Notes: generated from the letters alone by a model not told the origin. A stretch of DNA of 64,000 bases from Myxococcota bacterium (GCA_965228475.1 OZ245817.1:1-64000), one strand, 5' to 3'; positions 27,650-49,731 are shown, counted from the first letter of the stretch. A program made the numbers and translations.

Positions 27650-27768
27650 GCCTCGCCGAGGAGGCGGGGGATGGGAGGAGGGCCTGCGGGACCCGCCGTG
27701 GGGCTGTCGGGTGGTTTCGGGGGGTGGGGGGAGTCGGGACGGTCCCGCAGGCCCTCCTCCCATCCCCC
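27650..27768 (-). repeat. REPIN/MITE-like hairpin element, copy A
   Basis: Perfect 28-bp inverted repeat, arms 27666-27693 and 27741-27768. Confidence 0.85.
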
Positions 27769-30872: not shown

Positions 30873-30997
30873 GGGCGCCTTTCTCCGCAGCGGGTCCAGC
30901 CTTCATCGGCAGGCACCGGTCTGAGGAAAACGCGAGACCATAGGAAAGGTTCGGGGGATTGGCCGGGTGCGCAGGTCATGCGCAGTGGACTGGCAAC

Positions 30998-31112
30998 GGC
31001 GGGCTGGGGGGAGGGCCTCCGGGACCGTCCCGACTCTCCAATCTCACGATTCCCAGCACCCAGCCCCCCGGCGGGTCCCGGAGGCCCTCCCCCCAGCCCG
31101 CCTCCTCGGCGG
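30998..31112 (+). repeat. REPIN/MITE-like hairpin element, copy B
   Basis: Perfect 29-bp inverted repeat, arms 30998-31026 and 31074-31102; shares gggaccgtcccgactc and ccgcctcctcggcg with copy A, in opposite orientation. Confidence 0.85.
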
Positions 31113-31135
31113 TGCGGGGGGCCTTCGTCCGTGGC

Positions 31136-31969
31136 CTATTCGTCGGGCTCGGAGAGGATCTTGCGGCGTTGGGCCATGTATTCGGCTTCGCCGATGGAGC
31201 CGGCCTGGCGGGCTTCCTCTAGGTCGGCGAGGGCTCGGAGCTTGGCCGGGGAGACCTTGCTGAGGTCGAGGGTGTCTTCGGGGGCGACGGCGGGGGCGAC
31301 CTCTTCCGGCTCTTCCATGAGAACGGTGCGGCGTTCGACGCGGCCGCCGGAGCGGATGCGGATGGCGTCGGCGCGGCGGAAGGAATCCCGCCGCCAATCG
31401 ACCGCGACGACCTGGCGGGCGATCGGCACGATGCCGTTGCTCGGAAGGACCTTGAAGGATTGGAACTCCTTCTTGACGTCGATCTCGCGGACGCGCTCGT
31501 TCGGGTTCTTCGGCACGGCCCAGTCGACGCGCCCGACGTGGATGCGCAGCTGATCGTTCTTCATCGACGCGGCGATGCTCGTCATGCGCTCGGAGGTGAA
31601 GAGCTTGAGTGAGCGCGTGTGGCGGGAGGCGTCGATCACGACGTCCTGGGTCGGGTCGGCCTTGGCCAGCGCCCGCGCGAGCTGCTCGCCGAGCGGGTAG
31701 ATCAGCTCCACCGGAATCGCATGGGTGCGCGCGTTCTTCGTCTCGTTCTCGTCGAAGCGCACGTCGATGCTCGCGAGGATGTGGGCGAGCCGCACGGCGG
31801 AGATCGTCGTCGGGTGCTCGTAGCCCGGGTTCACGTCGGTGCGGGCGCGCAGGACGACGCGGAAGTCGCCCCCTTCGTAGAACGTGTCGCGCGAGTAGCG
31901 CGGCCCGCCGCAGGCGGCGAGGAGGAGCGAGGCGGCACACAGGGCGACGGCGATGCGGGAAGTCTTCAT
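31136..31969 (-). CDS. Lipoprotein with a C-terminal SHOCT-like domain
   Basis: Lipobox LAAC; C-terminal KLRALADLEEARQAGSIGEAEYMAQRRKIL. Confidence 0.75.
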   Translation of the reverse strand: MKTSRIAVALCAASLLLAACGGPRYSRDTFYEGGDFRVVLRARTDVNPGYEHPTTISAVRLAHILASIDVRFDENETKNARTHAIPVELIYPLGEQLARALAKADPTQDVVIDASRHTRSLKLFTSERMTSIAASMKNDQLRIHVGRVDWAVPKNPNERVREIDVKKEFQSFKVLPSNGIVPIARQVVAVDWRRDSFRRADAIRIRSGGRVERRTVLMEEPEEVAPAVAPEDTLDLSKVSPAKLRALADLEEARQAGSIGEAEYMAQRRKILSEPDE

Positions 31970-31991
31970 GGGAGGTTCCTCGGGGGCGAGC

Positions 31992-33890
31992 TTACGCGGG
32001 CGGGCCGGTCGCCGCGAGCACGGCGCGATAGGTCAGGAAGCTCGCGCCGTAGGCCAGGGCGAGCAGGTAGCCGAAGGCGAAGGCCGGCCAGCGCCAGGAG
32101 GCCGTCTCGCGCCGCATGATGGCGAGGGTCGACATGCACTGGAGCGCGAAGACGAAGAACACGAGGAGCGATGCGACCGCCGCGGGCGTGAAGACCTTCT
32201 GGCCGGTCCGCGGGTCGACGTCGGCGCGGATCGCCTCGCGCAGGCTCGCCTCCTCGTCGGTGGCCGCGTAGATCTGGGCCAGCGTCGCGACGATCACCTC
32301 GCGCGCCGCCAGGCTCGCGACGAGCCCGACGCCGATCTTCCAATCGAAGCCGAGCGGCGCGATGGCCGGCTCGATGGCGTGGCCGAGCCGCCCCGCGGCG
32401 CTCTGCTCGAGGGCGTAGCGCGCGGCCTCGGCCTCGCTGGCTCCGGCCGGCGCCTCGACGCGCGGGAAGGTCAGGAGCACCCAGAGCACCATGGTCACGA
32501 GCAGGATGATCGTCCCCGCCCGGCGCAGGAAAGCCCAGGCGCGGTCCCAGACCTGCCAGAGGACGAGCCGGACGGTCGGCACGCGATAGGGCGGGAGCTC
32601 CATGTAGAACGGCAGGCCGTCGCTCGGCGCGACCGTCTTCTTGAGCAGGGCGGCGACGGCGAAGGCCGAGAGCGAGCCGAGCAGGTACAGGCCGAAGAGC
32701 ACCAGCCCCTGGAGTCCGAAGGGCCCGACCTGGCTCGCGGGTACGAAGGCCGCGATCAGCAGCGCGTAGACCGGGAGCCGTGCCGAGCAGGTCATGAGCG
32801 GGGAGACGAGGATCGTGACGAGGCGGTCGCGCGCGGAGGGCACGCTGCGCGTGGCCATGATGCCCGGGATCGCGCAGGCGAACGAGGAGAGCAGCGCCAC
32901 GAAGGAGCGCCCTTCGAGCCCGATGCGTCCCATGGCGCGGTCGACGACGAAGGCGGCGCGCGCCATGTAGCCCAGGTTCTCGAGCGTCGAGAGCAGCACG
33001 AACAGCAGCATGATCTGCGGCAGGAAGATCACGACGCCGCCGACCCCGGCGATCAGGCCGTCGACGAGGAAGTCCCGGAGGAGGCCTTCCGGGAGCGCGC
33101 CGCCGACCGCCTCGCCGAGGCTCCCGACGCCCGCGTCGATGGCGTCCATGGCCGGCGCGGCCCAGGCGAAGATCGCCTGGAAGAAGAGGATCATCACCGC
33201 GATGAACAGGAGCGTCCCGCCGACGGGGTGGAGGACGACGCGGTCGATGGCTTCGGTCAGGGCGTGCTGGCCGGGCCGCTCCTCGAGCACGCTCGCGAGG
33301 ATCGAATCCACCCAGGCCGCGCGCTCCTCGACGCTGCGGGGCGCCGGGACGACCGGGCGCTCCCAGCTCTCGGGCTCCCCGATCCGGGCCCGGAGCGCAT
33401 CGAGGCCGACGCCGCGGTGCCCGACCACGGGCACGACCGGGATGCCGAGGGCGGCTTCGAGCCGCTCGCGGTCGAGGCGGCCGCCCCGGGCCGCGAGCTC
33501 GTCGATCATGGTGAGTACGAGGCAGGTCGGCCGGCCGAGGGCGAGCACCTCGCCGACCAGGAGCAGCGAGCGCTCGAGGGCGCAGGCGTCGGCCACCACC
33601 ATGAGGGCGTCGGGGGCCGGGACGTCCGGGACGTCCCCCGCCAGGGAGGCGGCCACGACGGCCTCGTCGGGGCTTACCGGAGAGAGGCCGTAGGTCCCGG
33701 GGAGATCGACGACGCGGATGCGCCGGCCCCCGGACTCGGTCTCCCCTTCCCGGTGCTCGACGGTCACGCCGGGGTAGTTCCCGACCTTCGCCCGCAGGCC
33801 GGTCAGGGCGTTGAACAGCGTGGTCTTGCCGCAGTTCGGGCTGCCGACCAGCCCGACGCGGATCTCCGCCGCATCCGCCGCCGCAGTCAC
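31992..33890 (-). CDS. feoB: Ferrous iron transporter B
   Basis: GSPNCGKTT, VGNYPGVTVE, DLPGTY, CSARLPVY, AREVIV. Confidence 0.95.
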   Translation of the reverse strand: MTAAADAAEIRVGLVGSPNCGKTTLFNALTGLRAKVGNYPGVTVEHREGETESGGRRIRVVDLPGTYGLSPVSPDEAVVAASLAGDVPDVPAPDALMVVADACALERSLLLVGEVLALGRPTCLVLTMIDELAARGGRLDRERLEAALGIPVVPVVGHRGVGLDALRARIGEPESWERPVVPAPRSVEERAAWVDSILASVLEERPGQHALTEAIDRVVLHPVGGTLLFIAVMILFFQAIFAWAAPAMDAIDAGVGSLGEAVGGALPEGLLRDFLVDGLIAGVGGVVIFLPQIMLLFVLLSTLENLGYMARAAFVVDRAMGRIGLEGRSFVALLSSFACAIPGIMATRSVPSARDRLVTILVSPLMTCSARLPVYALLIAAFVPASQVGPFGLQGLVLFGLYLLGSLSAFAVAALLKKTVAPSDGLPFYMELPPYRVPTVRLVLWQVWDRAWAFLRRAGTIILLVTMVLWVLLTFPRVEAPAGASEAEAARYALEQSAAGRLGHAIEPAIAPLGFDWKIGVGLVASLAAREVIVATLAQIYAATDEEASLREAIRADVDPRTGQKVFTPAAVASLLVFFVFALQCMSTLAIMRRETASWRWPAFAFGYLLALAYGASFLTYRAVLAATGPPA

Positions 33891-34111
33891 GAAGCGTGCA
33901 CCTCGACGAGGCTCGCTTCGCCCCGCCGGAGCGCGATCCGATAGCCCCGCAGCTCGTAGAGGGTCGGGTCGCCGAGCGGCGCCCGCCGCACGACCCGGAC
34001 CTCGGTGCCGGGGCAGAAGCCCAGGTCCGCGAGCCGGGTGGCCAGGGGTTCGGCGGCCGCGATCGCGCGGACGCGCGCGGCAGCGCCGGGCTCGAGCCGG
34101 TCGAGACTCAT
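33887..34111 (-). CDS. feoA: Ferrous iron transport protein A
   Basis: RLADLGFCPGTEV..APLGDP..IALRRGEA. Confidence 0.92.
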   Translation of the reverse strand: MSLDRLEPGAAARVRAIAAAEPLATRLADLGFCPGTEVRVVRRAPLGDPTLYELRGYRIALRRGEASLVEVHAS

Positions 34112-34160
34112 GGCATCGCTCTTCAAGGACGGGGGCCTCCGCGGGCGGGCGGCGGAGCGT

Positions 34161-34180
34161 AATTGAAAATCGTTTTCAAA
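34161..34180. promoter_or_regulatory. Fur-type operator
   Basis: Palindrome TTGAAAA-tcg-TTTTCAA (34163-34179), an AT island directly upstream of feoA. Confidence 0.8.
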
Positions 34181-34250
34181 ACCAGGGGTTCCCGCCTATG
34201 GGAACGCGTTCGCAAACCGCGGCCGGTGGGGCGCAAGTGACCGACGTTGC

Positions 34251-35267
34251 TCACGTTCCGTCGAAGTCGTGCTCCGTGGTCAGCTGCCGTGTCATGAGCA
34301 GGCTGCGCGCCTGCTCCGGCCGGACCTCGCCGTCGAGCAGGGCCCGGACCATCTGGGTGATGGGCATGTCGACGCCGAGCGCATTGGCCAGGCCGCAGGC
34401 GGCGCGGGTCGTGCGGATGCCCTCGGCCACCTCGTTCATGTCCGCGACGATCTCCGCGAGCGATCGGCCGCGGCCGAGCTCGAGCCCGACCTTCCGGTTG
34501 CGGGAGAGGTCGCCGGTGCAGGTGAGGACCAGGTCGCCCATGCCCGAGAGGCCCAGGAAGGTGGTCGGTTTGGCGCCCATCCGGGTGCCGAGGCGGGTGA
34601 TCTCGTTCAAGCCGCGGGTCATCAGCCCGGCCCGCGCGTTCAGTCCGAGTTCGAGGCCGTCGCAGATGCCGACGGCGATGGCGACGACGTTCTTGAGCGC
34701 CCCGCCGAGCTCCACGCCCACCACGTCGTCGTGGGAGTAGCAGCGGAACCAGTCGCAGGAGAGCGTGGTCTGGACCGCGATGGCGTAGGCCTCCTCCTCG
34801 CAGGCCAGGGTCACCGAGGTCGGCTTGCCGTCGGCGATCTCGCGGGCGAAGGACGGCCCGGAGAGGAACACCAGCCGGGCGTGATGCTCCTCGGGCAGGC
34901 AATCGCGCAGGACCTCGTCCATGCGCGCGCCGGTCTCGACCTCGATCCCCTTCACGGTGGAGACGAGGATGGCGTCCTCGGGCAGGAGCGGCGCGGCGCG
35001 CTTCATCAGCTCCCGGACGCCGTGGCTCGGGACGGCGAGGATCACCATCTCGCGGCCCGCGAGGGCCGTGGCGAGATCCGCGGTGGCGCGGACGTTCTCC
35101 GAGAGCGGGACGTCGCTCAGATAGTTCGGGTTGTGACGGTCGCGCTCGATGGCCTCGGCCGTTGCCGGGTCGCGCGCCCAGAGCGTCACGTCGTGCTCGC
35201 GTGCGGCGAGCATCGCCAGGCAGGTGCCGAAACTGCCGGCGCCGAGCACCGCGACGGGAGTGGTCAC
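34251..35267 (-). CDS. gpsA: NAD(P)H-dependent glycerol-3-phosphate dehydrogenase
   Basis: GAGSFGT, SGPSFARE, GGALKNV, GDLVLTC..SRN, AEG. Confidence 0.96.
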   Translation of the reverse strand: MTTPVAVLGAGSFGTCLAMLAAREHDVTLWARDPATAEAIERDRHNPNYLSDVPLSENVRATADLATALAGREMVILAVPSHGVRELMKRAAPLLPEDAILVSTVKGIEVETGARMDEVLRDCLPEEHHARLVFLSGPSFAREIADGKPTSVTLACEEEAYAIAVQTTLSCDWFRCYSHDDVVGVELGGALKNVVAIAVGICDGLELGLNARAGLMTRGLNEITRLGTRMGAKPTTFLGLSGMGDLVLTCTGDLSRNRKVGLELGRGRSLAEIVADMNEVAEGIRTTRAACGLANALGVDMPITQMVRALLDGEVRPEQARSLLMTRQLTTEHDFDGT

Positions 35268-35438
35268 GGCGGGCAGTGTATCAGCCTGGCACGAAGCATC
35301 GGGCCGCTCGTGCCCCCGGGGGCCGCGAATCGGGTGCGGTCGCCCGGCCCGTGGAGGGAGTCAATTCGACGACTGTACGCCCGCGTTGCTCCCGGGGTAG
35401 TCTCAGCAGGCTCGTGCTGAGCTTGGAGCAAGGATGGA

Positions 35439-35636
35439 ATGTTCAGGAGGGTCGTGCAGAACGTCGGCATCATGATCGCGACGGCTGCACTCGTGGCCGG
35501 ATGGGGGCTCCTGGATCGGGAGTCAGGCCTCGAGAGCTGGTTCGAGCTACGCGAGCAAGTGAGAACCGCGACCGAGAATCTCGATCGCTACAAGCTCGAG
35601 GCAAGAAGTCTTGACCGAGAGTCGAGAGGGCCCTGA
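35439..35636 (+). CDS. FtsB/DivIC-like TM + coiled-coil segment, probably the frameshifted N-terminus of the next gene
   Basis: TM helix then DRESGLESWFELREQVRTATENLDRYKLEARSLDRE, an FtsB-like pattern; adding one G near 35621 joins it to DUF4062. Confidence 0.6.
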   Translation: MFRRVVQNVGIMIATAALVAGWGLLDRESGLESWFELREQVRTATENLDRYKLEARSLDRESRGP

Positions 35637-37000
35637 CCCTGGCGCGCAGTTCCCCTTCAGATGCCGCTCGAGTCTTCATCTCTTCCACGTCCGAGGATCT
35701 TCGCGAGGACCGCGCCAGTACGATCCGGATGCTCCGGCAGCTCGGGTGCAATCCTATTGCGATGGAGGATTTTGCGCCGGGTGGTTCGCCCCCACTACAG
35801 CGTTGTGTCCAGGAAGTCCGCGCGTGTGATGCCTACGTCGGGATATTCGCCTGGCGTTACGGCTACGTGCCAGAGGGGCACGAGAAGAGTATCACCGAGC
35901 TCGAGTACGAGGCCGCTCTCGCGGCAGGGCTGGAAGTGTTTATCTTCCTCATCGACGAAGATTCTCATAGCCCAGACGATGAGATCGGCACGCGCTTCGA
36001 GGCTGTTAGAGACCTCCGTGCCAAGCTGATGAAGAATCACGTTGTCGCTTTCTTTCGGGGTGCCAACGACTTGGCGCCCAAGGTAGTTACGTCGGTTGCG
36101 AAGTGGTTGGCCGGGTCCCGGCGCGAAGATCGCTCGCCGAGTGTTCCTGGCCTGCTCCCCTACCTGAGCGACAGAGATCGGCAAGTCCTCGAGGTCTTTA
36201 GGCTCTTGGAGCAGCGCTCAGCGGGTCAACGCCGCCCCACCTTCATCCTGATGCATGGTGGTTTGGAGCAAGCACACGACACGTTCGTGGATCGACTCAT
36301 TCATCAGGAGCTACCACGGCTTCTCAGGCTGGACCCCACGACCGAGCGAGTGACGCACTTGCCATTGCGATGGCGCGGGGGCGGCACGAGAACAGATCGG
36401 CTCGATTCGCTGGAGCTGCAGCTTGCGCAGGCGCTGGCGAGTCCTTCGCTGGAAGTCCAAGCGCCGAGCACCCTCGGATCGGAGTGGCGGGAGATCGCTT
36501 CCGCCGGGTCCGGGGTACTACTGATCACTTCGATGATCGGTAGCCACGAGTGGCACCACGACGAGGAGGATCTCATCGACTCTTGGATGGGACTCTGGCG
36601 AGGCTTCCCCGATTTGGCACCGGCGAGGTACATCGTTGTGATTGTTGGGGTCCAGTACCGTTCCTCCCCCGAATCTGGGTGGTTGTTTCGAAGAAGGAGC
36701 CGTCGTCAACACGCTGAGATTCGTCGCAGCCTTCGGGCCCTGACTGCCCGAGGGATGGATCGACTTGTCGTCGGCCTGCTGCCGGAACTCTCCAGCGTGA
36801 CCGAAGGGGATGTCGAGGAGTGGATGAAGGATCGGGTCCCAGAATTCTGTGAAGCAACTGGGCGTGACCCCGTGTTGATTCGGGAGCATCTGCTTCCCAA
36901 GGTGAGGGATCTGTTTCGTGATACCCGGGCTCCGATCCCGATGGCGACATTGGGCCCGCAGCTTCGTATGTTGCTCGCGGAAGAGGGCAAGAAGATATGA
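35621..37000 (+). CDS. DUF4062 (TIR/NDT-like) + inactive STAND (iSTAND) protein
   Basis: Frame is open from 35615. RVFISSTSEDLREDR..MEDF..YVGIFAWRYG..SITELEYEAA (DUF4062); LPYLSDRDRQ, HGGLEQAHDTFVDRL, LPELSSVTEGDVEEW (iSTAND-like). The first ATG (35729) lies inside the domain. Confidence 0.75.
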   Translation, partial: VERALTLARSSPSDAARVFISSTSEDLREDRASTIRMLRQLGCNPIAMEDFAPGGSPPLQRCVQEVRACDAYVGIFAWRYGYVPEGHEKSITELEYEAALAAGLEVFIFLIDEDSHSPDDEIGTRFEAVRDLRAKLMKNHVVAFFRGANDLAPKVVTSVAKWLAGSRREDRSPSVPGLLPYLSDRDRQVLEVFRLLEQRSAGQRRPTFILMHGGLEQAHDTFVDRLIHQELPRLLRLDPTTERVTHLPLRWRGGGTRTDRLDSLELQLAQALASPSLEVQAPSTLGSEWREIASAGSGVLLITSMIGSHEWHHDEEDLIDSWMGLWRGFPDLAPARYIVVIVGVQYRSSPESGWLFRRRSRRQHAEIRRSLRALTARGMDRLVVGLLPELSSVTEGDVEEWMKDRVPEFCEATGRDPVLIREHLLPKVRDLFRDTRAPIPMATLGPQLRMLLAEEGKKI

Positions 37001-37965
37001 ACAGACGGATCTTCACGACCGCTGACTCGCCGGATGGTTCTTGGGGCTCGTCGATCGATCGTCGACCTCTGGTAGCGCCTGAGGGATACCAAGCTGACGA
37101 TCGACTAAGGGATGCGGTCAGCGTATCCCTTCATCTCGGCCAGCCGCTTCTATTGACCGGAGAACCGGGAACCGGGAAGACGCAGCTGGCCTTCTCACTC
37201 GCTTGGGAGCTTGGCCTTGGGACTCCGCTGGGGTTTGATACGAAATCAACCAGCACGTCACGAGATCTATTCTACTCCTACGATTCTTTGGGTCGCTTTC
37301 ACGCTGCTCAGGCCGGGGGTGGAACCGCGAATCCGATCGACTATCTCCACTTCAACGCCCTCGGTCTCGCTGTCCTTCGCGCGACGCCACCCGAGAGCTA
37401 CTCCGATCTCAAGGATGCCCTGGGCGAGACTGCGCATCGGAAGCGGTCGGTGGTTTTGATCGACGAGATCGATAAGGCGCCCCGTGATTTCTCGAATGAT
37501 CTCCTCGCCGAACTCGAGGAGATGTATTTTAGGATTCCCGAACTGGCGAATCTCGTGGTCGCGGCAGACCCGGAGTATCGCCCCATCGTTGTCGTCACTA
37601 GCAACTCCGAGCGAAATCTTCCGGACGCGTTCCTGCGTCGCTGCGCCTACCACCACATCGAGTTCCCGGATCGAGATCGCATGCAGAGAATCGTCGCAGC
37701 TCGCCTCGGTGAACGAGTCGCTAAGGACCGGGAGTCGCTGGATCTAGCTCTTGATTTCTTTGAGGCCCTACGTGACCCAGCAACGACGCTCGCAAAGAAG
37801 CCCTCGACCGGCGAGTTCCTAGTTTGGTTGCGAATTCTGTCGGACCGAGGCGTTGGGCGAAACCCGCGGGAATGGGGGGCGACCCTGAGCGCCCTCGTGA
37901 AGACATCCGATGATTCGAGGCGGGCTCTGGGCCTTCTAGCCCGTTTCCGCACCCTGTCCGAGTAG
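36997..37965 (+). CDS. moxR: MoxR-family AAA+ ATPase
   Basis: PLLLTGEPGTGKT, VVLIDEIDKAPRDFSNDLL, TSNSERNLPDAFLRRC; ATGA overlap with the iSTAND gene. Confidence 0.92.
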   Translation: MNRRIFTTADSPDGSWGSSIDRRPLVAPEGYQADDRLRDAVSVSLHLGQPLLLTGEPGTGKTQLAFSLAWELGLGTPLGFDTKSTSTSRDLFYSYDSLGRFHAAQAGGGTANPIDYLHFNALGLAVLRATPPESYSDLKDALGETAHRKRSVVLIDEIDKAPRDFSNDLLAELEEMYFRIPELANLVVAADPEYRPIVVVTSNSERNLPDAFLRRCAYHHIEFPDRDRMQRIVAARLGERVAKDRESLDLALDFFEALRDPATTLAKKPSTGEFLVWLRILSDRGVGRNPREWGATLSALVKTSDDSRRALGLLARFRTLSE

Positions 37966-37970
37966 ATTCC

Positions 37971-40900
37971 TTGCTCCCGTCCGAAGAGTCACTCTTCGAC
38001 CTGCTCGACGAGCTGCGCTCCGCGGGACTTGGGATCGGGACAGAACACTACATTCAGGCGCAAGAGCTGCGTGTCTCCTTCGAGCAAGGCGCGCGATCGC
38101 AGAGCGACTTGTTGTCGTGGCTTGCACCTTTGTTGTGCTCGAGCCCTTCCGATCTGGAGACATTCTCAGAGGTTGCGGAATCCTGGAGCTCTCGAAGCGT
38201 CAATCGTGGCCGTCGCGAGTTTCCGTGGAGCCTCGGCCTCGGAAAGCTCCGTCGAGGGTTCTACGGCTGGCTAGGTCGCTGCCTCGGGAGATCGATTGGG
38301 CGTTGGTCGGGTGGCGCCCGCCTACTTACCGAGCTCAGGAAGCCAGACCGTCTTGGGGCCGTCACCGTAGGGTTGGTCGTTGGGGGCCTGGGCGTTCTCT
38401 TCGTCAGGAACGAGATCCTCGATCTCCGCTACGAGCTAGGCGAGATCTCCCAACAGGTCCTGGCGTTGGACGCCGAGGTTCGAAGTGTTCGAGGGCTGAC
38501 GGGCGGGGACGTCGTGCTTGATTCACCAGACCCGAGTTCCGTTTCCGTGACCGGCGTGATTGTCGACGAGGATGGACAGCCACTAGAAGGCGCGCAGGTC
38601 GAGATCCTAGGCGCACTCGGGGAGACTCGGTCTCTCGAACTCCATCTCGGCCCGCCCTTGGGGGTCGGTTTTCAGGGAAGCAACATCGTTGCGGTGGGCT
38701 CCGAAGAGGGGCGCCCGAAGGTGGTTCGCTGGAACCCAGAGCGTGCAGAGCCAGAGACTTGGTACCTGGAAGCTGATGCACCGAGGCATGCGGAGCTCTT
38801 TCCCGACGCCAGCTCGGTCATTCTGTCGTCTGAGCAGGGAGAGATTTCTCTCTTCGACATCGGGTCCAGCCAAAGCCGTTGGCGAAAGGTGATCCGGGGA
38901 CAAGTGCTTCGAGTGGCATCGTCTCCCCTCTCGACCGGCAGAGCATTCCTTGTTGTGTCCTGGAATCGAGGAATTCTCAGTGCCGAATGGTTCACGATCA
39001 ACGGCAACGGAGAGTCAGCGTCCCTCGTACGGACCATCGAGTCGGATCTCCCAAAGCTGATCGAGACCGAAGTATCCGAGGTCGACTTCCGAGTTCTCGC
39101 TTTGGTCGAGAGTTCCTCAGAGGTCATTGCCTTGGGAATGAGCCGGGCGGGTTCAGAACGGTGGTCACTGCCGGTGGTGGGGGCAGTGGACCTGGGAATG
39201 TCGGGTCAACGCTGGGTGGTCGCTCGAGAGGACTCGATCGAGCTCTACTCGCGAGGGTCGTTGGTCTTGGAGCTCGACGAGGTTGCCGGCGTCAGTGACG
39301 TCGACCTGCGCGAGGACGCTCTGGTCATCGAGACGTCCGAAAGGAGCCTAGCAGTCGTTGATCCGGAGTCTGGAACTCTGAACGTGGATTCTCGAGGGCC
39401 CCCGGACGGCCCGGTCGCGTGGCTCATAACCCAAACGACGATGCATGGTGAAGACCCAGTCTTGCGACGATGGGTTCACGGTCGTCCGACAGAAGCGACG
39501 CTTTCGATCAACAGTCAGAGCGGCGGCCCGAGCCCCGGGAGAGACGGTCACGGCGCGCAGTATCAAGTCGCCCCTGTGACCGCGCTGACTTCCGCGGTCC
39601 GACCCGATGGGCTCGGGGTTGCGACTCTCGGCCTTGGCGGGGTCCTTAGATTTCATGGAGTGCCCCTCGTGAGGACGACGAATCCTCTCGGGCGTTTCCG
39701 TGCCAAGTATCGTTCTCTTGGCGCCTTGACGTTGGTGCGAGCCGAGGCTGCGCCGTACGAATCGCGGACACTTCTGCTACCCGTCGAATCGTCGAGGGCA
39801 GACGTTCAGATTTCCCTCGACGTCGCACAGGTCTCCTCCGGGAAGCCGCTGGTAGAGTCGGTCTTCCTCGGTGTAGCTGTTGCGGTTGCAACGACGCTGG
39901 GCGTCTTCCTGTTGGCTCTGGGACGCCCGCGGGCCGTTGCTGAGCGGGCAGACTCTACGGCGCAGGACGATGCTCCTTCGCTCGCCCTGGCTCAGGGCGG
40001 AGAAAGGGAGCTGATCGATCCGCATGTGATCGACCGAATCAGCCAAGTAGGGGGCGTAGGCGGATCGTCGTTGCAGGCTCGCCTGGACGTTGAAGCGACG
40101 GTCAGGGCAACGGCTGAAGCAGCGGGCCACTTCAAGCCCATCCACGAGGAGATCAGTAGCGATGAGAGGTACCTCGCGCTCATAGATGCGCGCGGGGCGG
40201 GAGACCATCAAGCGCTACTGGTCCTCCATCTGCTCGAGACGCTCGCGAGCCGAGGCTTCCAGGCCACGTGTTTCACATTCCACTCCGATCCGAGGGTCTG
40301 TCGATCGGTTGATTCAGAATCGGATCTTTGGTCGTTGAGTCGCCTTGCCGCGAAGTACTCTGAGCATTCGCTGCTGATCTTTTGCAATCCGGAACAGTGC
40401 TGCGATCTCACGGCTGGAGGCTTGCAGCCCTGGGTTAAGGGGCTGGAGAGTTTCCGCTCCCGCGCAATCCTCGATCCACAGCCGGGAATGCTCTCTGGGG
40501 AGCTGGTGGACTCCCTCACCTCCGCGAACATCTCGGTCGTTCCCTCAACGCCGGAGGGCGTCGAGAGGTTGCTAGCAGGGGCTCGGCATCCGGAACGGGA
40601 GCCTCGCGAACCTCACTCCCCCATCCTTCTGGAACGGCCCCTTCGATGGCTCGACGAAGCCCCTCCACCCGAAGCCGATCAGGACCGTCTCTGTGTGGAG
40701 CTCATTGCGAGCCTTGGCTTCGATGACTTCAATCTGCTTGCAGCATGCGCCGTTTACCCGATCCTCGACTGGCCCCTCACGATCCTGCTTCTGAGGGCAC
40801 TCGACGCCTCGAAGCCCCTGGAGGCGCGTTTTGGGCAGCTACTCAGGTTCTCCCGGCTCCCTTGGTTTCGTGTGGGTTGGATGCCGGACTGGTTGCGCAG

Positions 40901-42812
40901 TCGGCTCCTCCGGGAGCTCCCCGTAGAAACGGAGCGGTCGATCCGTTCGGCCCTGCGGCTTCACATTGGAGCTGCAGGCGACGACGCCCTGAGAGCGACG
41001 GTTCGGCCACGAGGATTGCGTTGGCGGGCAGCAGGGTCTGGGGTGAGCCGGGAGATCGGAGAGGACCGGGTCTTTGTCGGTTTCATGATGGGGAGCCGCG
41101 GTCGTGGCCTCGACGTCGAGCTGAGGAGCGCTCCAGTGTTGCGCTTGATGCTAGGAGCGGGCGTCCAGAGGCTATTCGGGATCTGGCGGGTCCTCCGCGG
41201 GAGAGCGGTGCGGCTGATCGACGTCAGGGTAGGTCGCCTGCGCGACAAGGCGCTGGCTCCGGGCATCTCGTTGATGAGCAGCGCAACGGATCGACGAACG
41301 TTGTCCCGGGTGTATGCCCTGGGCCTGCTAGGCGTTGCGATAGCCGCCGTTCTGGGGGGGCGAGCGATCTATCTGGCTCAGCCTCGCCAAGGTCGCGACA
41401 ACGTTCGGGCCTCGACGATAGTTGTACCGCCGGTAAGGGGAGAGATTCTGGATCGCGATGGTCGTCGTCTCGCGGTTTCCGTAGAGGCGCCCTCTGTCTA
41501 CATAGACAGCGGCTTCGAAGAATCATCGATTCTATCGCTTTCTCGGGCGCTCGAGCTGGACGAGGGCTTCGTGCGCGGTCGGTTCGAGTCGATGAAGAAC
41601 TTCAGTTTCATCCAGCGGTGGGCGTCCGAGGAGGCGGCTGAGCGGGTGCAGAGTCTCGGTATCCCTGGTGTTGGGGTTCTGCGGGAGCCGAGGAGAATGT
41701 ACCCGGAAGGGACTCTGGCTGGTTCACTGGTCGGTTTCGCGAACATCGATGGCGATGGAGTTCGTGGTATCGAACAGGCAGAGGACAATTGGCTCAGGGG
41801 CAGAGAAAGACGAGTCCTGTTTGAACGCGACGCTCGAGGCAAAGTCATGGCCGACGAGATGCTCGACCCCCGCCAGTGGGCCGGCGGAGACGTGCAGCTG
41901 ACACTTGACCTCGCGACACAACGCCGCGTGGTCGGCGAGTTGTCCAAGCTTCTCACCTCTACTCGATCCGGCGGGGCGGTCGGTGTGGTCTTGGGCAGTC
42001 GGAGCGAGGTTACGGCACTCGCGCAGGCTCCCTCGTTCGATCCGAACCGCTTCCGATCGACCTCCTTTGCGGATACTCGGGCGAAGCCGTTCCTCGACTC
42101 TCACCAACCGGGGATGTCGCTTCTCCCGGTATTCCTGGCGATTGGACTGGAGAAGGGCGTGCTAGGCATCGATGCCTTGGAATCGTTCGACCCGGAGGAT
42201 CCGAGAACCCGCAGCACTGCGAGAGTATTGGCGAGAAGGCTCGGTCCGCGCGGGACTTCCGAAGGCCTTCGTGAGGCCGGGTTCGGGCGGGTGTCAGGAA
42301 GCGGCTTCCCTGGTGAGTCCGCGGGAATTCTGCGGCCCTGGGAACAGTGGCGTCCGATCGACCTCGACGCGATCTCGGCTGGATTCGGGATCAACGTGAC
42401 TCCGATCCAGCTCGCATCCGCGCTCTCGGCCCTTGTGGGCGGCGGAGTCCAGAGGTCGCCCGAACTCGTGCTCACACGCCGAAGGCCTGGAGGGCAATGG
42501 CAGGCCCTTCCTCAATCAGATTCTCGACGCGTCGTCTCTGAGGGTACGTCTCAAGCGATCACCCGCTGGTTCGAGTCGCGCTCCATTGAGCTGATCGGAG
42601 GACGATATTCGAGCTTCGAGGTCCGGGCCGAAGCGTTGAGTTCCAGTACGGGCGAGTTCGACGATCAGATCTTCTGGAGCCTCGGCGTGGTATTTGGGCC
42701 GAGTCCTACCGTGATCGTTCTCCAAGTAACGGACCCAGGTACCGGCGTAGAAGACGCTCTCGGAGCGGCCTTCCGGGGAGTCGCCTCTAGGATCCTCGAG
42801 TCTTCTCCATGA
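37971..42812 (+). CDS. MoxR-associated vWA-type protein fused to an FtsL-like helix, carboxypeptidase-regulatory/beta-propeller region and an inactive FtsI-like PBP domain
   Basis: LRSAGLGIG..LAPLLCSS N-domain; LDVEATVRAT..YLALID..DHQA..AACAVYP..RLPWFRVGWMPDWLR (vWA component); RGEILDRDGRRLAVS, RRMYPEG, GIEQ, TLD, VTPIQLA (class B PBP). Confidence 0.8.
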   Translation: MLPSEESLFDLLDELRSAGLGIGTEHYIQAQELRVSFEQGARSQSDLLSWLAPLLCSSPSDLETFSEVAESWSSRSVNRGRREFPWSLGLGKLRRGFYGWLGRCLGRSIGRWSGGARLLTELRKPDRLGAVTVGLVVGGLGVLFVRNEILDLRYELGEISQQVLALDAEVRSVRGLTGGDVVLDSPDPSSVSVTGVIVDEDGQPLEGAQVEILGALGETRSLELHLGPPLGVGFQGSNIVAVGSEEGRPKVVRWNPERAEPETWYLEADAPRHAELFPDASSVILSSEQGEISLFDIGSSQSRWRKVIRGQVLRVASSPLSTGRAFLVVSWNRGILSAEWFTINGNGESASLVRTIESDLPKLIETEVSEVDFRVLALVESSSEVIALGMSRAGSERWSLPVVGAVDLGMSGQRWVVAREDSIELYSRGSLVLELDEVAGVSDVDLREDALVIETSERSLAVVDPESGTLNVDSRGPPDGPVAWLITQTTMHGEDPVLRRWVHGRPTEATLSINSQSGGPSPGRDGHGAQYQVAPVTALTSAVRPDGLGVATLGLGGVLRFHGVPLVRTTNPLGRFRAKYRSLGALTLVRAEAAPYESRTLLLPVESSRADVQISLDVAQVSSGKPLVESVFLGVAVAVATTLGVFLLALGRPRAVAERADSTAQDDAPSLALAQGGERELIDPHVIDRISQVGGVGGSSLQARLDVEATVRATAEAAGHFKPIHEEISSDERYLALIDARGAGDHQALLVLHLLETLASRGFQATCFTFHSDPRVCRSVDSESDLWSLSRLAAKYSEHSLLIFCNPEQCCDLTAGGLQPWVKGLESFRSRAILDPQPGMLSGELVDSLTSANISVVPSTPEGVERLLAGARHPEREPREPHSPILLERPLRWLDEAPPPEADQDRLCVELIASLGFDDFNLLAACAVYPILDWPLTILLLRALDASKPLEARFGQLLRFSRLPWFRVGWMPDWLRSRLLRELPVETERSIRSALRLHIGAAGDDALRATVRPRGLRWRAAGSGVSREIGEDRVFVGFMMGSRGRGLDVELRSAPVLRLMLGAGVQRLFGIWRVLRGRAVRLIDVRVGRLRDKALAPGISLMSSATDRRTLSRVYALGLLGVAIAAVLGGRAIYLAQPRQGRDNVRASTIVVPPVRGEILDRDGRRLAVSVEAPSVYIDSGFEESSILSLSRALELDEGFVRGRFESMKNFSFIQRWASEEAAERVQSLGIPGVGVLREPRRMYPEGTLAGSLVGFANIDGDGVRGIEQAEDNWLRGRERRVLFERDARGKVMADEMLDPRQWAGGDVQLTLDLATQRRVVGELSKLLTSTRSGGAVGVVLGSRSEVTALAQAPSFDPNRFRSTSFADTRAKPFLDSHQPGMSLLPVFLAIGLEKGVLGIDALESFDPEDPRTRSTARVLARRLGPRGTSEGLREAGFGRVSGSGFPGESAGILRPWEQWRPIDLDAISAGFGINVTPIQLASALSALVGGGVQRSPELVLTRRRPGGQWQALPQSDSRRVVSEGTSQAITRWFESRSIELIGGRYSSFEVRAEALSSSTGEFDDQIFWSLGVVFGPSPTVIVLQVTDPGTGVEDALGAAFRGVASRILESSP

Positions 42813-43885
42813 GGAACTCCGCACCCATCGCTCCGTGCCTATTGCTGTCTGGTCTCGGCATCTTGATGGCATATAGCCTCGGCGCTCCACACGGCGTTGA
42901 AAGAGAGCGGTTGCTCGCGCAGCTAGCGGGAGTCGTGGCGGGTGCCATCGCGGGTTTCTTGGTGTACAGGGTGCCGATACGTCTCCTGCACGACGCCAGC
43001 CCGCTCCTGCTCGTAGTGAGCATCTCTCTTACCATCGCAGGGCTGTTGTTTGGCCGTGAGGTGAACGGTGCCAACCTCTATCTCCATCTGTACGTGTCAG
43101 ACCTCGGATTCGGAATCCGGCACGGGTACCTCAGTGTCCTCCTTGCAATGGTATGGATTGCTAGGAGCGTTCGTGACGCTCGCACAGGCCCCGGGATTCC
43201 GTGGCCCCTCTTGCTCGTCCTCTTCCCGGGAGGAGCAATGCTCGCTGCTGGGGACCGAGTGTCGTTTGTACTCCTCACTACGATCGTGGTTCTCGCCCTG
43301 TTCGTGACCGGAGTTCGGATTCGTTGGCTCGTAGGGGCAATGACGATCTCGCTCTCGGTGATGGCTCTCTGGTTGGCGAACAACCCCTATCTTTGGACCC
43401 GCTTTGCTGGGTTTCTTGCACCGTGGGATCGTCGAGAGTACGAGGCCTACTCCCTGGTGCAATCGTTCGTTGCATTCGAGCGTGGAGGCCTCTTGGGGGT
43501 TGGCTTGGGAGACAGTCGCCAGAAACTGTTCTATCTCCCCGAAGCCCACTCTGATTTCGTGCTGGCTGTCTTGGCCGAGGAGCTAGGTGCGGTGGCCGTC
43601 TTGGTGGTGATCCTCTGTTTCGTGTGGATCGGGAGGTATGGATGGCAGGCAGCGATCCGATCGCACACGCTTTTTTCGAGGGCTCTTGCCACAATCACCA
43701 CCGCTTTCCTCGTGGTCCCTGTCACGTTGCACGCCGCGTCCGTTATGGGATTGATCCCGACGTCGACTTTTCCTTTGCCACTGGTCTCCTACGGCCGCAA
43801 CCATCTGCTTGTCTTTGGCGCCGCCATGGGAGTCCTTTGCCGCATCGACAGAGAATCGGCCCGAATGGACGGAATGGACGAGTAG
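42809..43885 (+). CDS. ftsW: Divergent FtsW-like SEDS membrane protein
   Basis: QSFVAFERGGLLGVGLGDSRQKLFYLPEAHSDFVLAVLAEELG, LPLVSYG; about 10 TMs; ATGA overlap. Confidence 0.82.
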   Translation: MRNSAPIAPCLLLSGLGILMAYSLGAPHGVERERLLAQLAGVVAGAIAGFLVYRVPIRLLHDASPLLLVVSISLTIAGLLFGREVNGANLYLHLYVSDLGFGIRHGYLSVLLAMVWIARSVRDARTGPGIPWPLLLVLFPGGAMLAAGDRVSFVLLTTIVVLALFVTGVRIRWLVGAMTISLSVMALWLANNPYLWTRFAGFLAPWDRREYEAYSLVQSFVAFERGGLLGVGLGDSRQKLFYLPEAHSDFVLAVLAEELGAVAVLVVILCFVWIGRYGWQAAIRSHTLFSRALATITTAFLVVPVTLHAASVMGLIPTSTFPLPLVSYGRNHLLVFGAAMGVLCRIDRESARMDGMDE

Positions 43886-44091
43886 GGTCCTATGTGCCCT
43901 GCGCAATAAGCCGTCTTCGTGTCGCAGCGGCTTGCCTACTGGGCGGCTCGATGCGTTGACGGGCATTTTGCTCGCGGCTAGCTTCCCCGAGATCCCTAGA
44001 TCTATCGCGGAGTTCCGCCACAGTCCGCACACCAGTCCGCACGCGTCTTGGCGCGCCTTCGCCGCCCGCCAGAAGCTGGAGGGGCTCCTCG

Positions 44092-44445
44092 ATGCTGGCC
44101 GAGTTCACCGGCGTGCTGCTGATGCTTGGGGTCGCCCTGGCCGTGGCCGGCGGCATGCTGCTCGTGCAGCAGCTCCTCTCGCCCCGCCGCGAATTCCCCG
44201 AGAAGCAGGAACCCTTCGAGTGCGGCGAGAGCCCCGTCGTCTCCCCCCGCCAGCGCTTCAGCGTGAAGTTCTATCTCGTCGCGATGCTCTTCCTCGTGTT
44301 CGATCTCGAGGCGGTGTTCTTCTACCCCTGGGCCGCGCTCTTCACGGACCTCGGCTGGTACGGCTACGGGATCATGACGGTCTTCGCCGTGCCGCTGGTC
44401 GTGGGCCTCGCCTACGAGTGGATGAAGGGCGCGCTCGAGTGGTGA
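44092..44445 (+). CDS. nuoA: NADH-quinone oxidoreductase subunit A
   Basis: PFECG, KFYLVAMLFLVFDLE, YEWMKGALEW. Confidence 0.95.
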   Translation: MLAEFTGVLLMLGVALAVAGGMLLVQQLLSPRREFPEKQEPFECGESPVVSPRQRFSVKFYLVAMLFLVFDLEAVFFYPWAALFTDLGWYGYGIMTVFAVPLVVGLAYEWMKGALEW

Positions 44446-44906
44446 TCTCCGAGGCCACCCGCTCGGCCATCGACGCACAGGTCGCGCGCTACCCGAGGCC
44501 GCGCGGCGCGCTGCTGCCGGCCCTGCACCTCGTCCAGAAGGAGCACGGCCACGTCTCGCCCGACGCGGCGCGCGAGCTCGCGGAGATCTTCGCGCTCGAG
44601 CCCATCGAAGTGTTCGAGGTGATCTCCTTCTACAACATGTTCCGCAGCCGGCCCGAGGGCCGCCACCACGTCTACGTCTGCACGAATCTGCCCTGCTCCC
44701 TGCGCGGCGCGCGGGGCCTGCTCGGCCAGCTCGAGGCACACCTCGGCATCCGGGCCGGGGAGACCACGGAGGACGGACGCATCACCCTCGGCCACGAGGA
44801 ATGCCTCGGCGCCTGCGGCTACGCCTCGATGCTGCGCGTCGACGAGACCTATCACGAAGACCTCGACCCGGCCCGCGCCAAGGAGATCCTCGACGCCCTC
44901 GAATAG
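44442..44906 (+). CDS. nuoE: NADH-quinone oxidoreductase subunit E
   Basis: SFYNMF, VCTNLPC, ECLGAC 2Fe-2S ligands. Confidence 0.93.
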   Translation: MISEATRSAIDAQVARYPRPRGALLPALHLVQKEHGHVSPDAARELAEIFALEPIEVFEVISFYNMFRSRPEGRHHVYVCTNLPCSLRGARGLLGQLEAHLGIRAGETTEDGRITLGHEECLGACGYASMLRVDETYHEDLDPARAKEILDALE

Positions 44907-44921
44907 GGCGCCCACGCTCGC

Positions 44922-46220
<1,299 letters not shown>

Positions 46221-46228
46221 GCGGGGCG

Positions 46229-47698
46229 ATGGCGAAGATCACCGTCGACGGCACCGTGTACGAGGTGAAGGCAGGCCGGACGATCCTCCAGGCGCTCGAC
46301 GAACTCGGCGTGCTCGGCCGGGACGTCGAGGTTCCCCACTACTGCTGGCACCCGAAGCTCTCGATCGACGGCTCGTGCCGGCTGTGCCAGGTCGAGGTCG
46401 AGGGTTTTCCGAAGCTCCAGATCGCGTGCAACACCCCGGTGAAGGACGGGATGGAGATCCGCACCCGGACGGAGGCGGTGCAGAGTGCGCGCGAGGGCGT
46501 GATGGAGCTCCTGCTCGTGAACCATCCGCTCGACTGCCCGATCTGCGACCAGGCCGGTGAGTGCAAGCTCCAGGACTACGCCTTCGAGTACGGCGTCGAA
46601 CACGCGCGGACGCGCGAGCCGCGCCGGGCCGCCAAGAAGAACGTGAGCCTCGGCCCGACCATCGTCTTCGACCAGGAGCGCTGCATCCTGTGCCGGCGCT
46701 GCGTCCGCTTCTGCCGGGAAGTACCCGGCACCGGGGAGCTCGGCGTCGTCGGCCGCGGCGATCACTCCCTGATCGAGACCTTTCCCGGCATGGAGCTCGA
46801 CAACCCGTACTCGATGAACGTCGCCGACATCTGTCCCGTCGGCGCGCTCACGACGAAGGACTTCCGCTTCAAGATCCGCGTCTGGTTCCTCGAGGACGTG
46901 CCCGGCGTCTGCACCGGTTGCGCCAAGGGCTGCAACGTCTGGATGGGGACGTCGAAGGGAGAGGTCCATCGCTACACGCCCCGCCGCAACGACGAGGTGA
47001 ACGAGACCTGGCTCTGCGACGCCGGGCGCATGACGTACAAGGAGATCGGCTCGCCCGCGCGGCTCGGGCATGCGCTCGTGCGCGGCGAGCTCGGCGTTCC
47101 GGAGACGGCGCCGACGAAGACCGCGCTCGCCGCGGCCGCCGAGCGCCTGACCGCCCTCGCTGCGGCCAAGGGCCCCGGGGTGATCGGCGCGGTCGCCTCC
47201 GGCCACGGGACCAACGAGGACCTCGCGGCCTTCGCGCGCTGGCTCGATGCCGCGGGGATCGAGAACCGCGGGCTGGCCACCGCCGCGGGCGAGAGCGACG
47301 ACCTGCTCGTCCAGGCCGAGAAGGCGGCCAACGGAGAGGGCGCGCGCCAGGCGGGCTTCGGCCCGGTCGCGCCGCTGCTCGACCGCCTGCGCGGCGGCGG
47401 GCTCGAGGCGCTCGTCGTCTGGGGCCACGATCTGCTCGCGCCCGAGCATCTCGGAGGCATCGAGCCGCTCGCGGGTCTCGAGACGCTCGTCGTCTTCGAC
47501 ACGCATCACTCGGCCCTCGAACGGCTGGCCCACGTCGTCGTCCCGACGCGCCACCTCGCCGAGAAATCCGGCCACGTCACCAACCACGAGGGCATCGTCC
47601 AGGCGGTCTCGCGCGCCGTGCCGGCGCCGGGCGATGCCATCGACGACGCCGAAGCCTTCGACGCGCTCGCCGCCGCGATGCGGAGCGAAGCGCCGTGA
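46229..47698 (+). CDS. nuoG: NADH-quinone oxidoreductase subunit G (short form)
   Basis: HYCWHP..CRLC, NHPLDCPICDQAGEC, RCILCRRCVRFC, CPVGAL. Confidence 0.92.
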   Translation: MAKITVDGTVYEVKAGRTILQALDELGVLGRDVEVPHYCWHPKLSIDGSCRLCQVEVEGFPKLQIACNTPVKDGMEIRTRTEAVQSAREGVMELLLVNHPLDCPICDQAGECKLQDYAFEYGVEHARTREPRRAAKKNVSLGPTIVFDQERCILCRRCVRFCREVPGTGELGVVGRGDHSLIETFPGMELDNPYSMNVADICPVGALTTKDFRFKIRVWFLEDVPGVCTGCAKGCNVWMGTSKGEVHRYTPRRNDEVNETWLCDAGRMTYKEIGSPARLGHALVRGELGVPETAPTKTALAAAAERLTALAAAKGPGVIGAVASGHGTNEDLAAFARWLDAAGIENRGLATAAGESDDLLVQAEKAANGEGARQAGFGPVAPLLDRLRGGGLEALVVWGHDLLAPEHLGGIEPLAGLETLVVFDTHHSALERLAHVVVPTRHLAEKSGHVTNHEGIVQAVSRAVPAPGDAIDDAEAFDALAAAMRSEAP

Positions 47699-48855: not shown

Positions 48856-48874
48856 GACTCCGGGACCTCGACGT

Positions 48875-49381
48875 ATGAGCGCCGAACTCGTCCTCTTCTA
48901 CGTGTTCGCAGCGCTCACGGGTGGCTCCGCGCTGGCGATGGTGCTCTCGGCGCGCAACACCGTCGCCGCAGCGATGTTCCTCGTGGTGACGATGGTCTCG
49001 CTGGCGGCGATCTACGTCCTGCTCGAGGCCTACCTGATCGCGGTGCTGCAGATCATGGTGTACGGCGGCGCGATCGTCGTGCTGTTCGTCTTCGTCGTGA
49101 TGCTCCTGAACCTGCGTCAGGACGAGTTCCCGCCCGCGAAGCAGTGGCTCGCCAAGGGCGCCGGAATCCTGCTGGCCGGATTCGCCCTGGTGAAGTTCGT
49201 GATGGTGCTCCCCGCAGCCCTGCCCGAAGCGGCGGCGACCCTGCCCGAGGGGTTCGGGGGCTACCGCCAGGTCGGAACGGCGCTCTTCACGCGCTACGTG
49301 CTCGCCTTCGAGGCGACGTCGCTCGTGCTGCTCGCGGCGCTCGTCGGCGCCGTGGTCCTCGCCAAGCGGAGGATCGACTGA
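48875..49381 (+). CDS. nuoJ: NADH-quinone oxidoreductase subunit J
   Basis: [25 protein letters not shown]. Confidence 0.95.
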
Positions 49382-49403
49382 TGCCGGCCCGGGGGATCGT
49401 CTG

Positions 49404-49712: not shown

Positions 49713-49731
49713 GCGGCGAGGCGGGCGCGCG

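Follow-up and report, generated by a model that had tools for sequence, protein, structure and literature searches.

Positions 35439-43885 of a 64,000-nucleotide stretch that opens the 5.0 Mb single-contig genome of a Myxococcota bacterium (GCA_965228475.1, OZ245817.1:1-64000; hereafter the window, to which all positions refer) hold five plus-strand open reading frames (ORFs), packed without room for separate regulation. Judged by domain content, these ORFs appear to encode a horizontally acquired iSTAND-type MoxR-vWA ternary conflict system, with a DUF4062 domain, a TIR-like NADase, as the predicted output. Its membrane and periplasmic parts are best read as non-catalytic paralogs of the septal synthase core, that is, of FtsB, FtsL, FtsI and FtsW. 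The core is a known kind of system; the four-module divisome set is so far found only here, in one genome lineage. We propose, tentatively and as a little short of an even prospect, that these modules make up a self-contained FtsBLWI-like bundle, which would face the envelope as sensor or anchor of an abortive-infection system acting through an NADase.

Pfam domains, gene order and the presence of the same components in related loci all support the iSTAND-MoxR-vWA assignment that an initial annotation of this DNA had made (Table 1). The genes are as tightly coupled as that annotation described: an ATGA overlap at 36997-37000 joins the stop of the iSTAND gene to the MoxR start, 5 nt separate the MoxR stop from a TTG start at 37971, and a second ATGA at 42809-42812 joins the stop of the 1613-aa vWA component to the FtsW-like start. 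The DUF4062-iSTAND gene begins less conventionally. Its reading frame opens at 35615 and lacks ATG, GTG or TTG until 35729; translation from that ATG covers DUF4062 profile positions 22-82 only (E 3.5e-15) and cuts off the first strand of the domain. From a CTG at 35633 the profile is fully covered (1-82 of 82; E 1e-24, 86.9 bits), and this codon lies in a CTGA (35633-35636) where it overlaps the TGA stop of the preceding FtsB-like gene, a layout like that of both ATGA overlaps with a rarer start codon. A frameshift at 35661-35672 was considered as the cause of the missing DUF4062 start and dropped, as contigs of three sequencing runs show identical letters; the CTG/TGA overlap is preferred. 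For the iSTAND domain, PF19995 returns 35.9 bits, above its cut-off of 24 (E 1.4e-8 when translated from the CTG), and no Walker A motif was found in the DUF4062-iSTAND protein.

The DUF4062 domain aligns with the solved DUF4062 of the Swarozyc protein KpSwz (E 4.2e-8), and the Glu of a 'TE' pair is conserved opposite KpSwz chain position 82, which corresponds to E97 only on the assumption, suggested by the name of the construct, that residue 16 is the first of the deposited chain. According to the KpSwz report (10.64898/2026.05.01.722283), DUF4062 domains hydrolyse NAD+, KpSwz depletes NAD+ and acts by abortive infection, and its E97A mutant is inactive. The same report describes KpSwz as a stand-alone protein activated by a phage portal, whereas the island DUF4062 sits on an iSTAND protein that would be under MoxR-vWA control. 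By its profile coverage and conserved Glu the island domain looks like an intact NADase, the predicted output enzyme of the system.

Pfam identifies two of the divisome subunits, with FtsI in the C-terminal part of the vWA component and FtsW as a separate gene. PBP_dimer and Transpeptidase domains span residues 1152-1535 of the vWA protein. At the SXXK site the FtsI-like module reads P-G-M-S-L-L instead of P-G-S-x-x-K, approximately 28 residues including SXN are deleted and KTG is replaced by S-F-E; all 11 genuine class B penicillin-binding proteins (bPBPs) aligned, comprising 10 FtsI and the host PBP2, keep SXXK, S-S-N (S-C-D in PBP2) and K-T-G. Alignment with Neisseria gonorrhoeae PBP2 (3equ) likewise reveals a lost SXXK and a shortened stretch at the SXN site. 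Pedestal identity to the 10 real FtsI is 45%, versus 56% among them (ratio 0.82), and transpeptidase-domain identity is 37% versus 58% (ratio 0.63); against the NCBIfam equivalog PRK15105 the module scores 120.3, with the cut-off at 737. These features indicate that the FtsI-like transpeptidase is catalytically dead.

The FtsW-like protein, a strongly diverged member of the shape, elongation, division and sporulation (SEDS) family, scores 213.9 against TIGR02614, below the cut-off of 337.5. Of 109 alignment columns with 90% or higher conservation across 118 homologs, it keeps 76 and differs at 33, with changes at 100%-conserved columns comprising W91Y, Q104R, E107Y, G213A, Q215S, T248S, L261A, G263A, N308H and G320T. 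It has lost the invariant Trp and the QPxE motif but retains the catalytic Asp, that of H-[ST]-D-F. Work on RodA attributes a role in SEDS polymerase activity to this Trp and to the glutamate of QPxE. The erosion of catalytic motifs suggested by the initial annotation is complete in the FtsI-like module and only partial in the FtsW-like protein. Among 5.8 billion proteins the closest non-self relatives of the latter are ordinary FtsW, some labelled Myxococcota, whose identity does not exceed 44% at a coverage of 78% or more. In a quick tree, which includes three badly extracted fragments (rel_L183, rel_L190 and rel_L194) and was used only for branch length and non-grouping, its branch measures 2.26 against a median of 0.24 (approximately ninefold) and does not group with the host FtsW. 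With periplasmic catalysis lost but pedestal, coils, ATPase motifs and NADase Glu retained, the sequences argue for a non-catalytic role of the divisome-like parts in a working system.

The two smaller subunits required profiles built at the level of the host's order. Pfam and NCBIfam give no match for either the FtsB-like or the FtsL-like segment; PF04999 misses the host's true FtsL too and is uninformative here, and PF04977 gives the host's real FtsB only 28.4 bits, with no match to the island FtsB-like ORF. Orthologs were collected from relatives (FtsB in 40 of 41 genomes, FtsL in 36 of 41), and profiles of 29 FtsB and 27 FtsL sequences, with the host's own genes left out, were run against the host genome's 44,966 stop-to-stop ORFs (50 aa or longer). 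In both rankings the true host protein comes first and the island second. The FtsB profile retrieves the true FtsB at E 1.4e-32, the island ORF at E 1.7e-8 (HMM, hidden Markov model, positions 4-63 of 103) and the next ORF at E 0.027; the FtsL profile retrieves the true FtsL at E 5.6e-28 and the large island ORF at E 1.4e-5 (HMM 24-87 of 126), with nothing else below E 10 among these ORFs. The island ORF and the FtsB profile have D-x-E-S-G-L-x-x-W-x-x-L-R in common; in the FtsL alignment L-R-x-x-x-L-x-L-R-Y-x-L is shared, and R-N-x-I-L-x-L-R-Y-x-L is also present in the host FtsL. Single-sequence phmmer searches return the true FtsB as the sole non-self match of the FtsB-like protein (E 0.0062) and the true FtsL as the second non-self match of the FtsL-like segment (E 0.33).

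The profile similarity on which the proposal of FtsB- and FtsL-like segments depended is therefore present, with one correction: the FtsB-like segment, described initially as fused to DUF4062-iSTAND, is a separate 65-aa gene in another frame. Its limited match suggests that this ORF is a homologous fragment of FtsB and not a full member. Both segments end after the coiled coil, and their C-terminal parts, which in real FtsB and FtsL bind FtsQ, are absent. An origin of the FtsB-like ORF as a host ftsB cut by the insertion was rejected, given the true ftsB at approximately 1.66 Mb, the gpsA and nuoA flanks and the GC content at third codon positions (GC3) of the ORF, 0.74. A complex prediction for the FtsB-like protein with vWA residues 95-200 (score 0.02, mark 0.34) gives no evidence either way. 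Elsewhere in the vWA protein, residues 1081-1092 (window 41211-41246; R-L-I-D-V-R-V-G-R-L-R-D) align with FtsL profile positions 84-95 without significance (-4.2 bits, conditional E 1.5); the match falls in the FtsL part missing from the N-terminal segment and shortly precedes the beginning of the FtsI-like module. It may be noise, or the vestige of an ftsL whose 3' end lay beside ftsI, the arrangement of division and cell wall (dcw) clusters.

Besides the island pair, the host genome carries two further SEDS genes and two further PBP_dimer genes (three of each in all). One pair, at 3.11-3.12 Mb, lies in the dcw cluster with FtsL directly upstream of FtsI and with MraZ-like and RsmH/MraW-like ORFs as neighbours (named by eye from translations); the second, at 4.30-4.31 Mb, is RodA/PBP2, and FtsB is encoded apart from both. 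The island divisome modules are extra copies, not the genome's only ftsI and ftsW, and the absence of dcw neighbours noted at the outset holds, gpsA and nuoA being the flanks. Their co-occurrence, which the initial annotation had considered unlikely to be accidental, is not attributable to chance because a single 8.4 kb operon holds four subunits of one complex, all in the appropriate membrane topology.

Extra copies of this kind might be a weapon, with the divisome modules poisoning the host divisome by pairing with its subunits, sequestering lipid II or making futile uncrosslinked glycan, and so causing arrest or lysis. Mixed pairs are conceivable in that the segments resembling FtsB and FtsL are close to proteins of the host's order, profiles at order level being the only ones to detect them; the missing C-terminal parts recall dominant-negative variants, and the FtsW-like protein retains its catalytic Asp. 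We nevertheless regard a weapon as unlikely: the Trp and QPxE lost from the FtsW-like protein are 100% conserved in the 118 homologs, making polymerase activity doubtful, the presence of all four mutual partners on the island suggests a self-contained complex, and an apparently intact NADase is already part of the system.

The same pattern of retained interaction surfaces and lost catalysis is what would be expected of an integrated decoy, a pseudo-divisome that mimics FtsBLWI and sets off the NADase when bound by divisome-attacking proteins of phages or competitors. One phage protein that binds this complex is SP01 gp56, which is reported to interact with DivIC/FtsL (10.1101/2020.02.06.938217). 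Such mimicry of the present host would be poor, however, with modules 37-45% identical to real FtsI and 36-41% identical to real FtsW and the FtsW branch some nine times the median; the island is foreign to this host and no trigger is known. We find a decoy of this type distinctly improbable, and give as little credence to the related idea of a decoy or guard receptor, in which a dead FtsBLWI replica wired through vWA-MoxR to the iSTAND NADase would let an attack on division or lipid II be read as an immune signal. Nothing found favours a decoy, as proposed initially, over a plain sensor or scaffold role.

Table 1. Features of the island and its borders, in window coordinates
Feature	Position	Strand	Basis
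ORFs of the operon	35439-35636, 35729-37000 (counted from ATG), 36997-37965, 37971-42812, 42809-43885	+	
Left border and operon upstream region	35283..35438		similarity to same-genus genome G001 stops ~15 bp past gpsA start (near 35282)
FtsB-like gene, 65 aa; transmembrane (TM) helix and coiled coil	35439..35636	+	order-level FtsB HMM E 1.7e-8; GC3 0.74
DUF4062 (TIR-like NADase domain) fused to iSTAND	35633..37000	+	probable CTG start overlapping FtsB-like stop; first ATG 35729
MoxR-type AAA+ ATPase	36997..37965	+	AAA E 1e-10, AAA_5 E 2.1e-10
vWA component, 1613 aa, one continuous ORF	37971..42812	+	three TM helices, predicted topology in-out-in-out
N-terminal helical domain, residues 4-72	37980..38186	+	found in 146/151 family representatives
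FtsL-like TM helix and coiled coil, residues 106-174	38286..38492	+	order-level FtsL HMM E 1.4e-5
Periplasmic beta-rich loop, residues 175-625	38493..39845	+	weak Pfam: CarboxypepD_reg E 5e-4, PQQ_2 E 9e-4
Conserved cytoplasmic core, residues 704-1056: vWA-like alpha/beta and helical domain	40080..41138	+	family-wide conservation, AlphaFold2 (AF2) fold
FtsI-like TM helix and pedestal (PBP_dimer), residues 1110-1375	41298..42095	+	PBP_dimer E 5e-10
Transpeptidase domain, predicted dead, residues 1376-1613	42096..42812	+	Transpeptidase E 4.6e-16; motifs lost
FtsW-like SEDS protein, 358 aa, strongly diverged	42809..43885	+	PF01098 (FTSW_RODA_SPOVE) 177.9 bits, E 3.7e-52
Right border	43886..44075		G001 similarity back at ~44076, just before nuoA

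The components that would link envelope and output are the ATPase and the vWA protein. With Walker A (GEPGTGKT) and Walker B (VVLIDE) motifs, the MoxR-type ATPase looks active; its sole PDB sequence match is midasin. In the predicted topology of the vWA component, the FtsL-like coil, the beta-rich loop and the FtsI-like module are outside and the N-domain and vWA domain inside. The loop is probably a CarboxypepD_reg-like sandwich followed by a beta-propeller, judging from weak domain matches; leads from an Atlas search score 0.83, an AF2 single-sequence model is unusable (predicted local distance difference test, pLDDT, 32.7) and Pfam gives no FtsQ or POTRA match within residues 121-643. An AF2 model of the core (residues 640-1100, 41 sequences; pLDDT 77.8) has as its top Foldseek match the NorD vWA domain in NorQD (probability 1.0, E 4e-3), and VIA places the MIDAS domains of Rea1 and MDN1 and the NorD vWA domain at Z 8.6, 8.3 and 8.2, with CheY- and TIR-like folds within 1 Z. 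The 1613-aa protein has no Pfam VWA match and no canonical DxSxS motif by eye; the modelled fold makes a vWA assignment plausible.

The resemblance of the core to NorD, its best structural match, leads to a non-immune reading, in which a MoxR-vWA chaperone pair, comparable to NorQD and CoxDE, would assemble or regulate a third SEDS-bPBP machine, one specialised in remodelling the envelope. Additional SEDS-bPBP pairs with dedicated tasks, such as SpoVE/SpoVD, do exist in some bacteria. NorQ-NorD and Rea1/MDN1, whose MIDAS domains are likewise among the best matches of the core and whose midasin matches the ATPase, are enzyme-maturation and ribosome-assembly machines, and the island MIDAS motif is not canonical. 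With a transpeptidase that is predicted dead, an iSTAND protein and a DUF4062 NADase that are hallmarks of conflict systems, and a foreign island that is absent from the relatives searched, we see very little prospect of a non-immune function.

The core belongs among the ternary systems described by Kaur et al. (2020). According to the main text of that study (PMC7159879), the iSTAND vWA component has a 4-helical CoxE-type N-domain and a C-terminal region that varies, with TM segments in approximately 28% of cases; the most frequent effector domain is FGS, and the domains found after a TM segment include PEGA, OmpA, PASTA and Sel1, which associate with peptidoglycan. The island shares with the systems presented there three core genes in the same order, an iSTAND protein with an N-terminal nucleotide-directed enzyme domain, a putative vWA component with helical N-domain, TM segments and a variable region after them, and cell-wall-associated modules as a theme; its own TM segment at residues 1110-1137, followed by the variable C-terminal (FtsI-like) module, is as expected of iSTAND-type vWA components. 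It differs in that a whole four-subunit complex has been co-opted, with two subunits as separate genes, and the main text of that paper mentions no PBP, SEDS, FtsB or FtsL module, the words penicillin, transpeptidase, FtsW and FtsI being absent from it. The novelty claimed initially holds for the divisome set, for which no second example was found in the loci, proteins and metagenomes searched, but not for the kind of system, which the main text of PMC7159879 already describes.

Searches with the first 1100 residues of the vWA protein confirm that it belongs to a large family (2688 cluster representatives at E no greater than 0.001, 460 at E no greater than 1e-30). We examined the best 150 of these 2688 representatives (151 in the counts) and the best 80 of 173 confirmed genome loci plus two loci from the host phylum, 82 in all. 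The best 80 of the 173 loci are mostly from cyanobacteria, Acidobacteriota and Beggiatoa-like bacteria, and within 10 kb they hold the vWA core in 80/80, a MoxR homolog in 70/80 and an iSTAND homolog in 54/80. In the host phylum the core was present in only 2 of 400 other sampled genomes, both times in the order iSTAND, MoxR, vWA. Among the 41 closest representatives, 25 have a Pfam match at E no greater than 1e-5: the closest representatives carry PASTA, CarboxypepD_reg or WD40 in the periplasmic loop and, at the C-terminus, LemA, MFS, M50 peptidase, SLT with TPR, CHASE2, trypsin, PASTA with PKD, EAD8, IcmF-related, PG_binding_1, TIR or kinase domains. The cell-wall-linked modules of the relatives comprise PASTA, SLT, PG_binding_1 and PEGA.

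An FtsI-like region occurs in none of the 151 family representatives, and no SEDS, bPBP, FtsB- or FtsL-like ORF was detected in the 82 related loci. A word-based search of long proteins (887-2823 aa), which can miss diverged fusions, returned only the island protein and an unrelated FtsI-MurE fusion as carriers of an FtsI-like part, and all 60 of 60 relatives match the large protein only in its FtsI-like part, through their own FtsI. Two metagenome scans, one with the vWA/FtsI junction and one with the FtsW-like protein, gave no relative; PADLOC gave no system-specific match, and we found no publication joining iSTAND or MoxR-vWA systems with penicillin-binding or FtsW proteins. The unrelated fusion (P0010, 965 aa, from a public collection) is a natural FtsI-MurE protein with PF03717, PF00905, PF08245 and PF01225. 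The closest relative in the phylum (L204, G150:C1:46000-65999, at approximately 7942-15406 on the minus strand) comprises a CHAT-iSTAND protein, a homolog of the island's MoxR (E 4.7e-99 to it) and a vWA component of 1587 aa that carries WD40 and PAN domains and is without a divisome module.

Composition and synteny reveal that the island, approximately 8.8 kb between its borders, is a horizontally acquired insertion, foreign by composition. The lower GC reported for this region is confirmed, at 0.59-0.65 against approximately 0.70-0.745 in both flanks, and GC3 is 0.65-0.74 in the operon genes against 0.94-0.95 in the flanking gpsA, nuoA and nuoF-like genes. The flanks are gpsA (34251-35267, minus strand) on the left and nuoA (44092-44445) on the right; five relatives were searched with NuoA, and four matched: one from the host's genus, one from its family and two from its order. 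All of these (4/4) have gpsA and nuoA in head-to-head arrangement with approximately 200 bp between them. We conclude that the insertion is foreign because GC3 is approximately 0.68 against 0.95 in the host and because the two genes are adjacent in all four of these relatives. No tRNA lies within 30000-50000, no integrase and no convincing flanking repeats were found at the island, and terminator-like sites there are no commoner than in shuffled sequences. Upstream of the operon, AAGGA precedes the ATG at 35439 and no sigma-70-like site was found. To the right of the island, nuoA and the nuoF-like gene (44922-46220) are followed by nuoJ-, nuoK- and nuoL-like genes (48875-51756). Further left in the window, 27768-30872 on the minus strand encodes a 1034-aa protein in which an LPG_synthase_TM region is joined to a sulfatase domain.

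An assembly chimera, a concern raised with the initial annotation, is contradicted by Logan contigs from three runs in two studies that contain the island stretch. In two runs a single contig (32,574 bases at depth 45; 16,120 bases at depth 253) spans 35200-44200 with 0 differences and 0 gaps, an identical sequence across approximately 9 kb, and in the third, shallow run the stretch is covered in pieces with 0 differences. This evidence consists of assembled contigs, not raw reads, and one run may be the source of the assembly. The fusion junction, the frame left open into the FtsI-like module and the unusual start of the iSTAND gene are nevertheless not confined to a single assembly.

A correctly assembled island could still be a relic or neutral chimera, a recent and possibly non-functional fusion product whose eroded motifs reflect decay. 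Consistent with decay are its status as a singleton, the lost periplasmic catalytic motifs and the non-canonical start of the DUF4062-iSTAND gene. Set against it, all five ORFs (approximately 2,800 codons in total) are intact and open in 62% GC DNA with overlapping starts and stops, GC1, GC2 and GC3 (GC content at first, second and third codon positions) are uniform and coding-like along the 1613-aa ORF, and the loss is selective, sparing pedestal, MoxR motifs and NADase Glu. On this balance a relic seems rather improbable.

Returning to the sensor or anchor reading, a known counterpart of the bundle is the FtsQLB-FtsWI septal peptidoglycan synthase, with solved FtsW/FtsI entries from Pseudomonas aeruginosa such as 8bh1. 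The FtsW-like protein is homologous to 8bh1_A (E 1.5e-32) and the FtsI-like module to a group that includes 8bh1 (E 1.5e-35); the FtsB- and FtsL-like TM helices and coils are present in the same membrane topology. In contrast to that synthase, the island lacks FtsQ and the FtsQ-binding tails of FtsB and FtsL, its transpeptidase motifs are absent and SEDS invariants lost, its FtsL- and FtsI-like modules are covalently joined via the vWA protein, and it lies outside the dcw cluster on a foreign island. Because the island is foreign, carries all four mutual partners and has no FtsQ-binding tails, its parts would bind each other and not the host divisome; because sister systems have peptidoglycan-binding modules at the same positions, the resulting bundle would be an envelope-facing sensor or anchor. 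In outline, the four modules would assemble with each other into an FtsBLWI-like bundle independent of FtsQ, which may anchor the vWA protein in the membrane and serve as its envelope-facing sensor, in the role played by PASTA, PG_binding or PEGA modules in sister systems. Infection that disturbs lipid II, peptidoglycan or the envelope might then change the conformation of the bundle, a change to which the MoxR ATPase and the vWA domain would respond by releasing or assembling the iSTAND protein. Depletion of NAD+ by the NADase would follow, with growth arrest or death of the cell as the outcome.

Several observations weigh against this proposal. Assembly of the four modules is something we infer, and in the direction of signalling the bundle could be either sensor or effector. 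Support for the vWA assignment is no more than moderate, and the MIDAS motif departs from the canonical one. The whole NADase domain depends on the CTG start, there being no canonical start before 35729, and the mapping of its catalytic Glu assumes the residue numbering of the KpSwz chain given above. As a singleton across the 82 loci, 151 representatives, 60 relatives and two metagenome scans, the island offers no comparative evidence of selection on the divisome modules.

Where sister iSTAND systems carry single peptidoglycan-binding domains, this island carries an entire set of interacting division proteins that has apparently lost its catalytic function. Should these proteins assemble, the result would be a minimal FtsBLWI complex that occurs naturally and is independent of FtsQ, useful for understanding how FtsL and FtsB communicate with FtsI and FtsW. 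It would also provide a concrete test case for envelope sensing by membrane-proximal ternary conflict systems, and would link cell-wall synthesis machinery to NAD+-depleting immunity.

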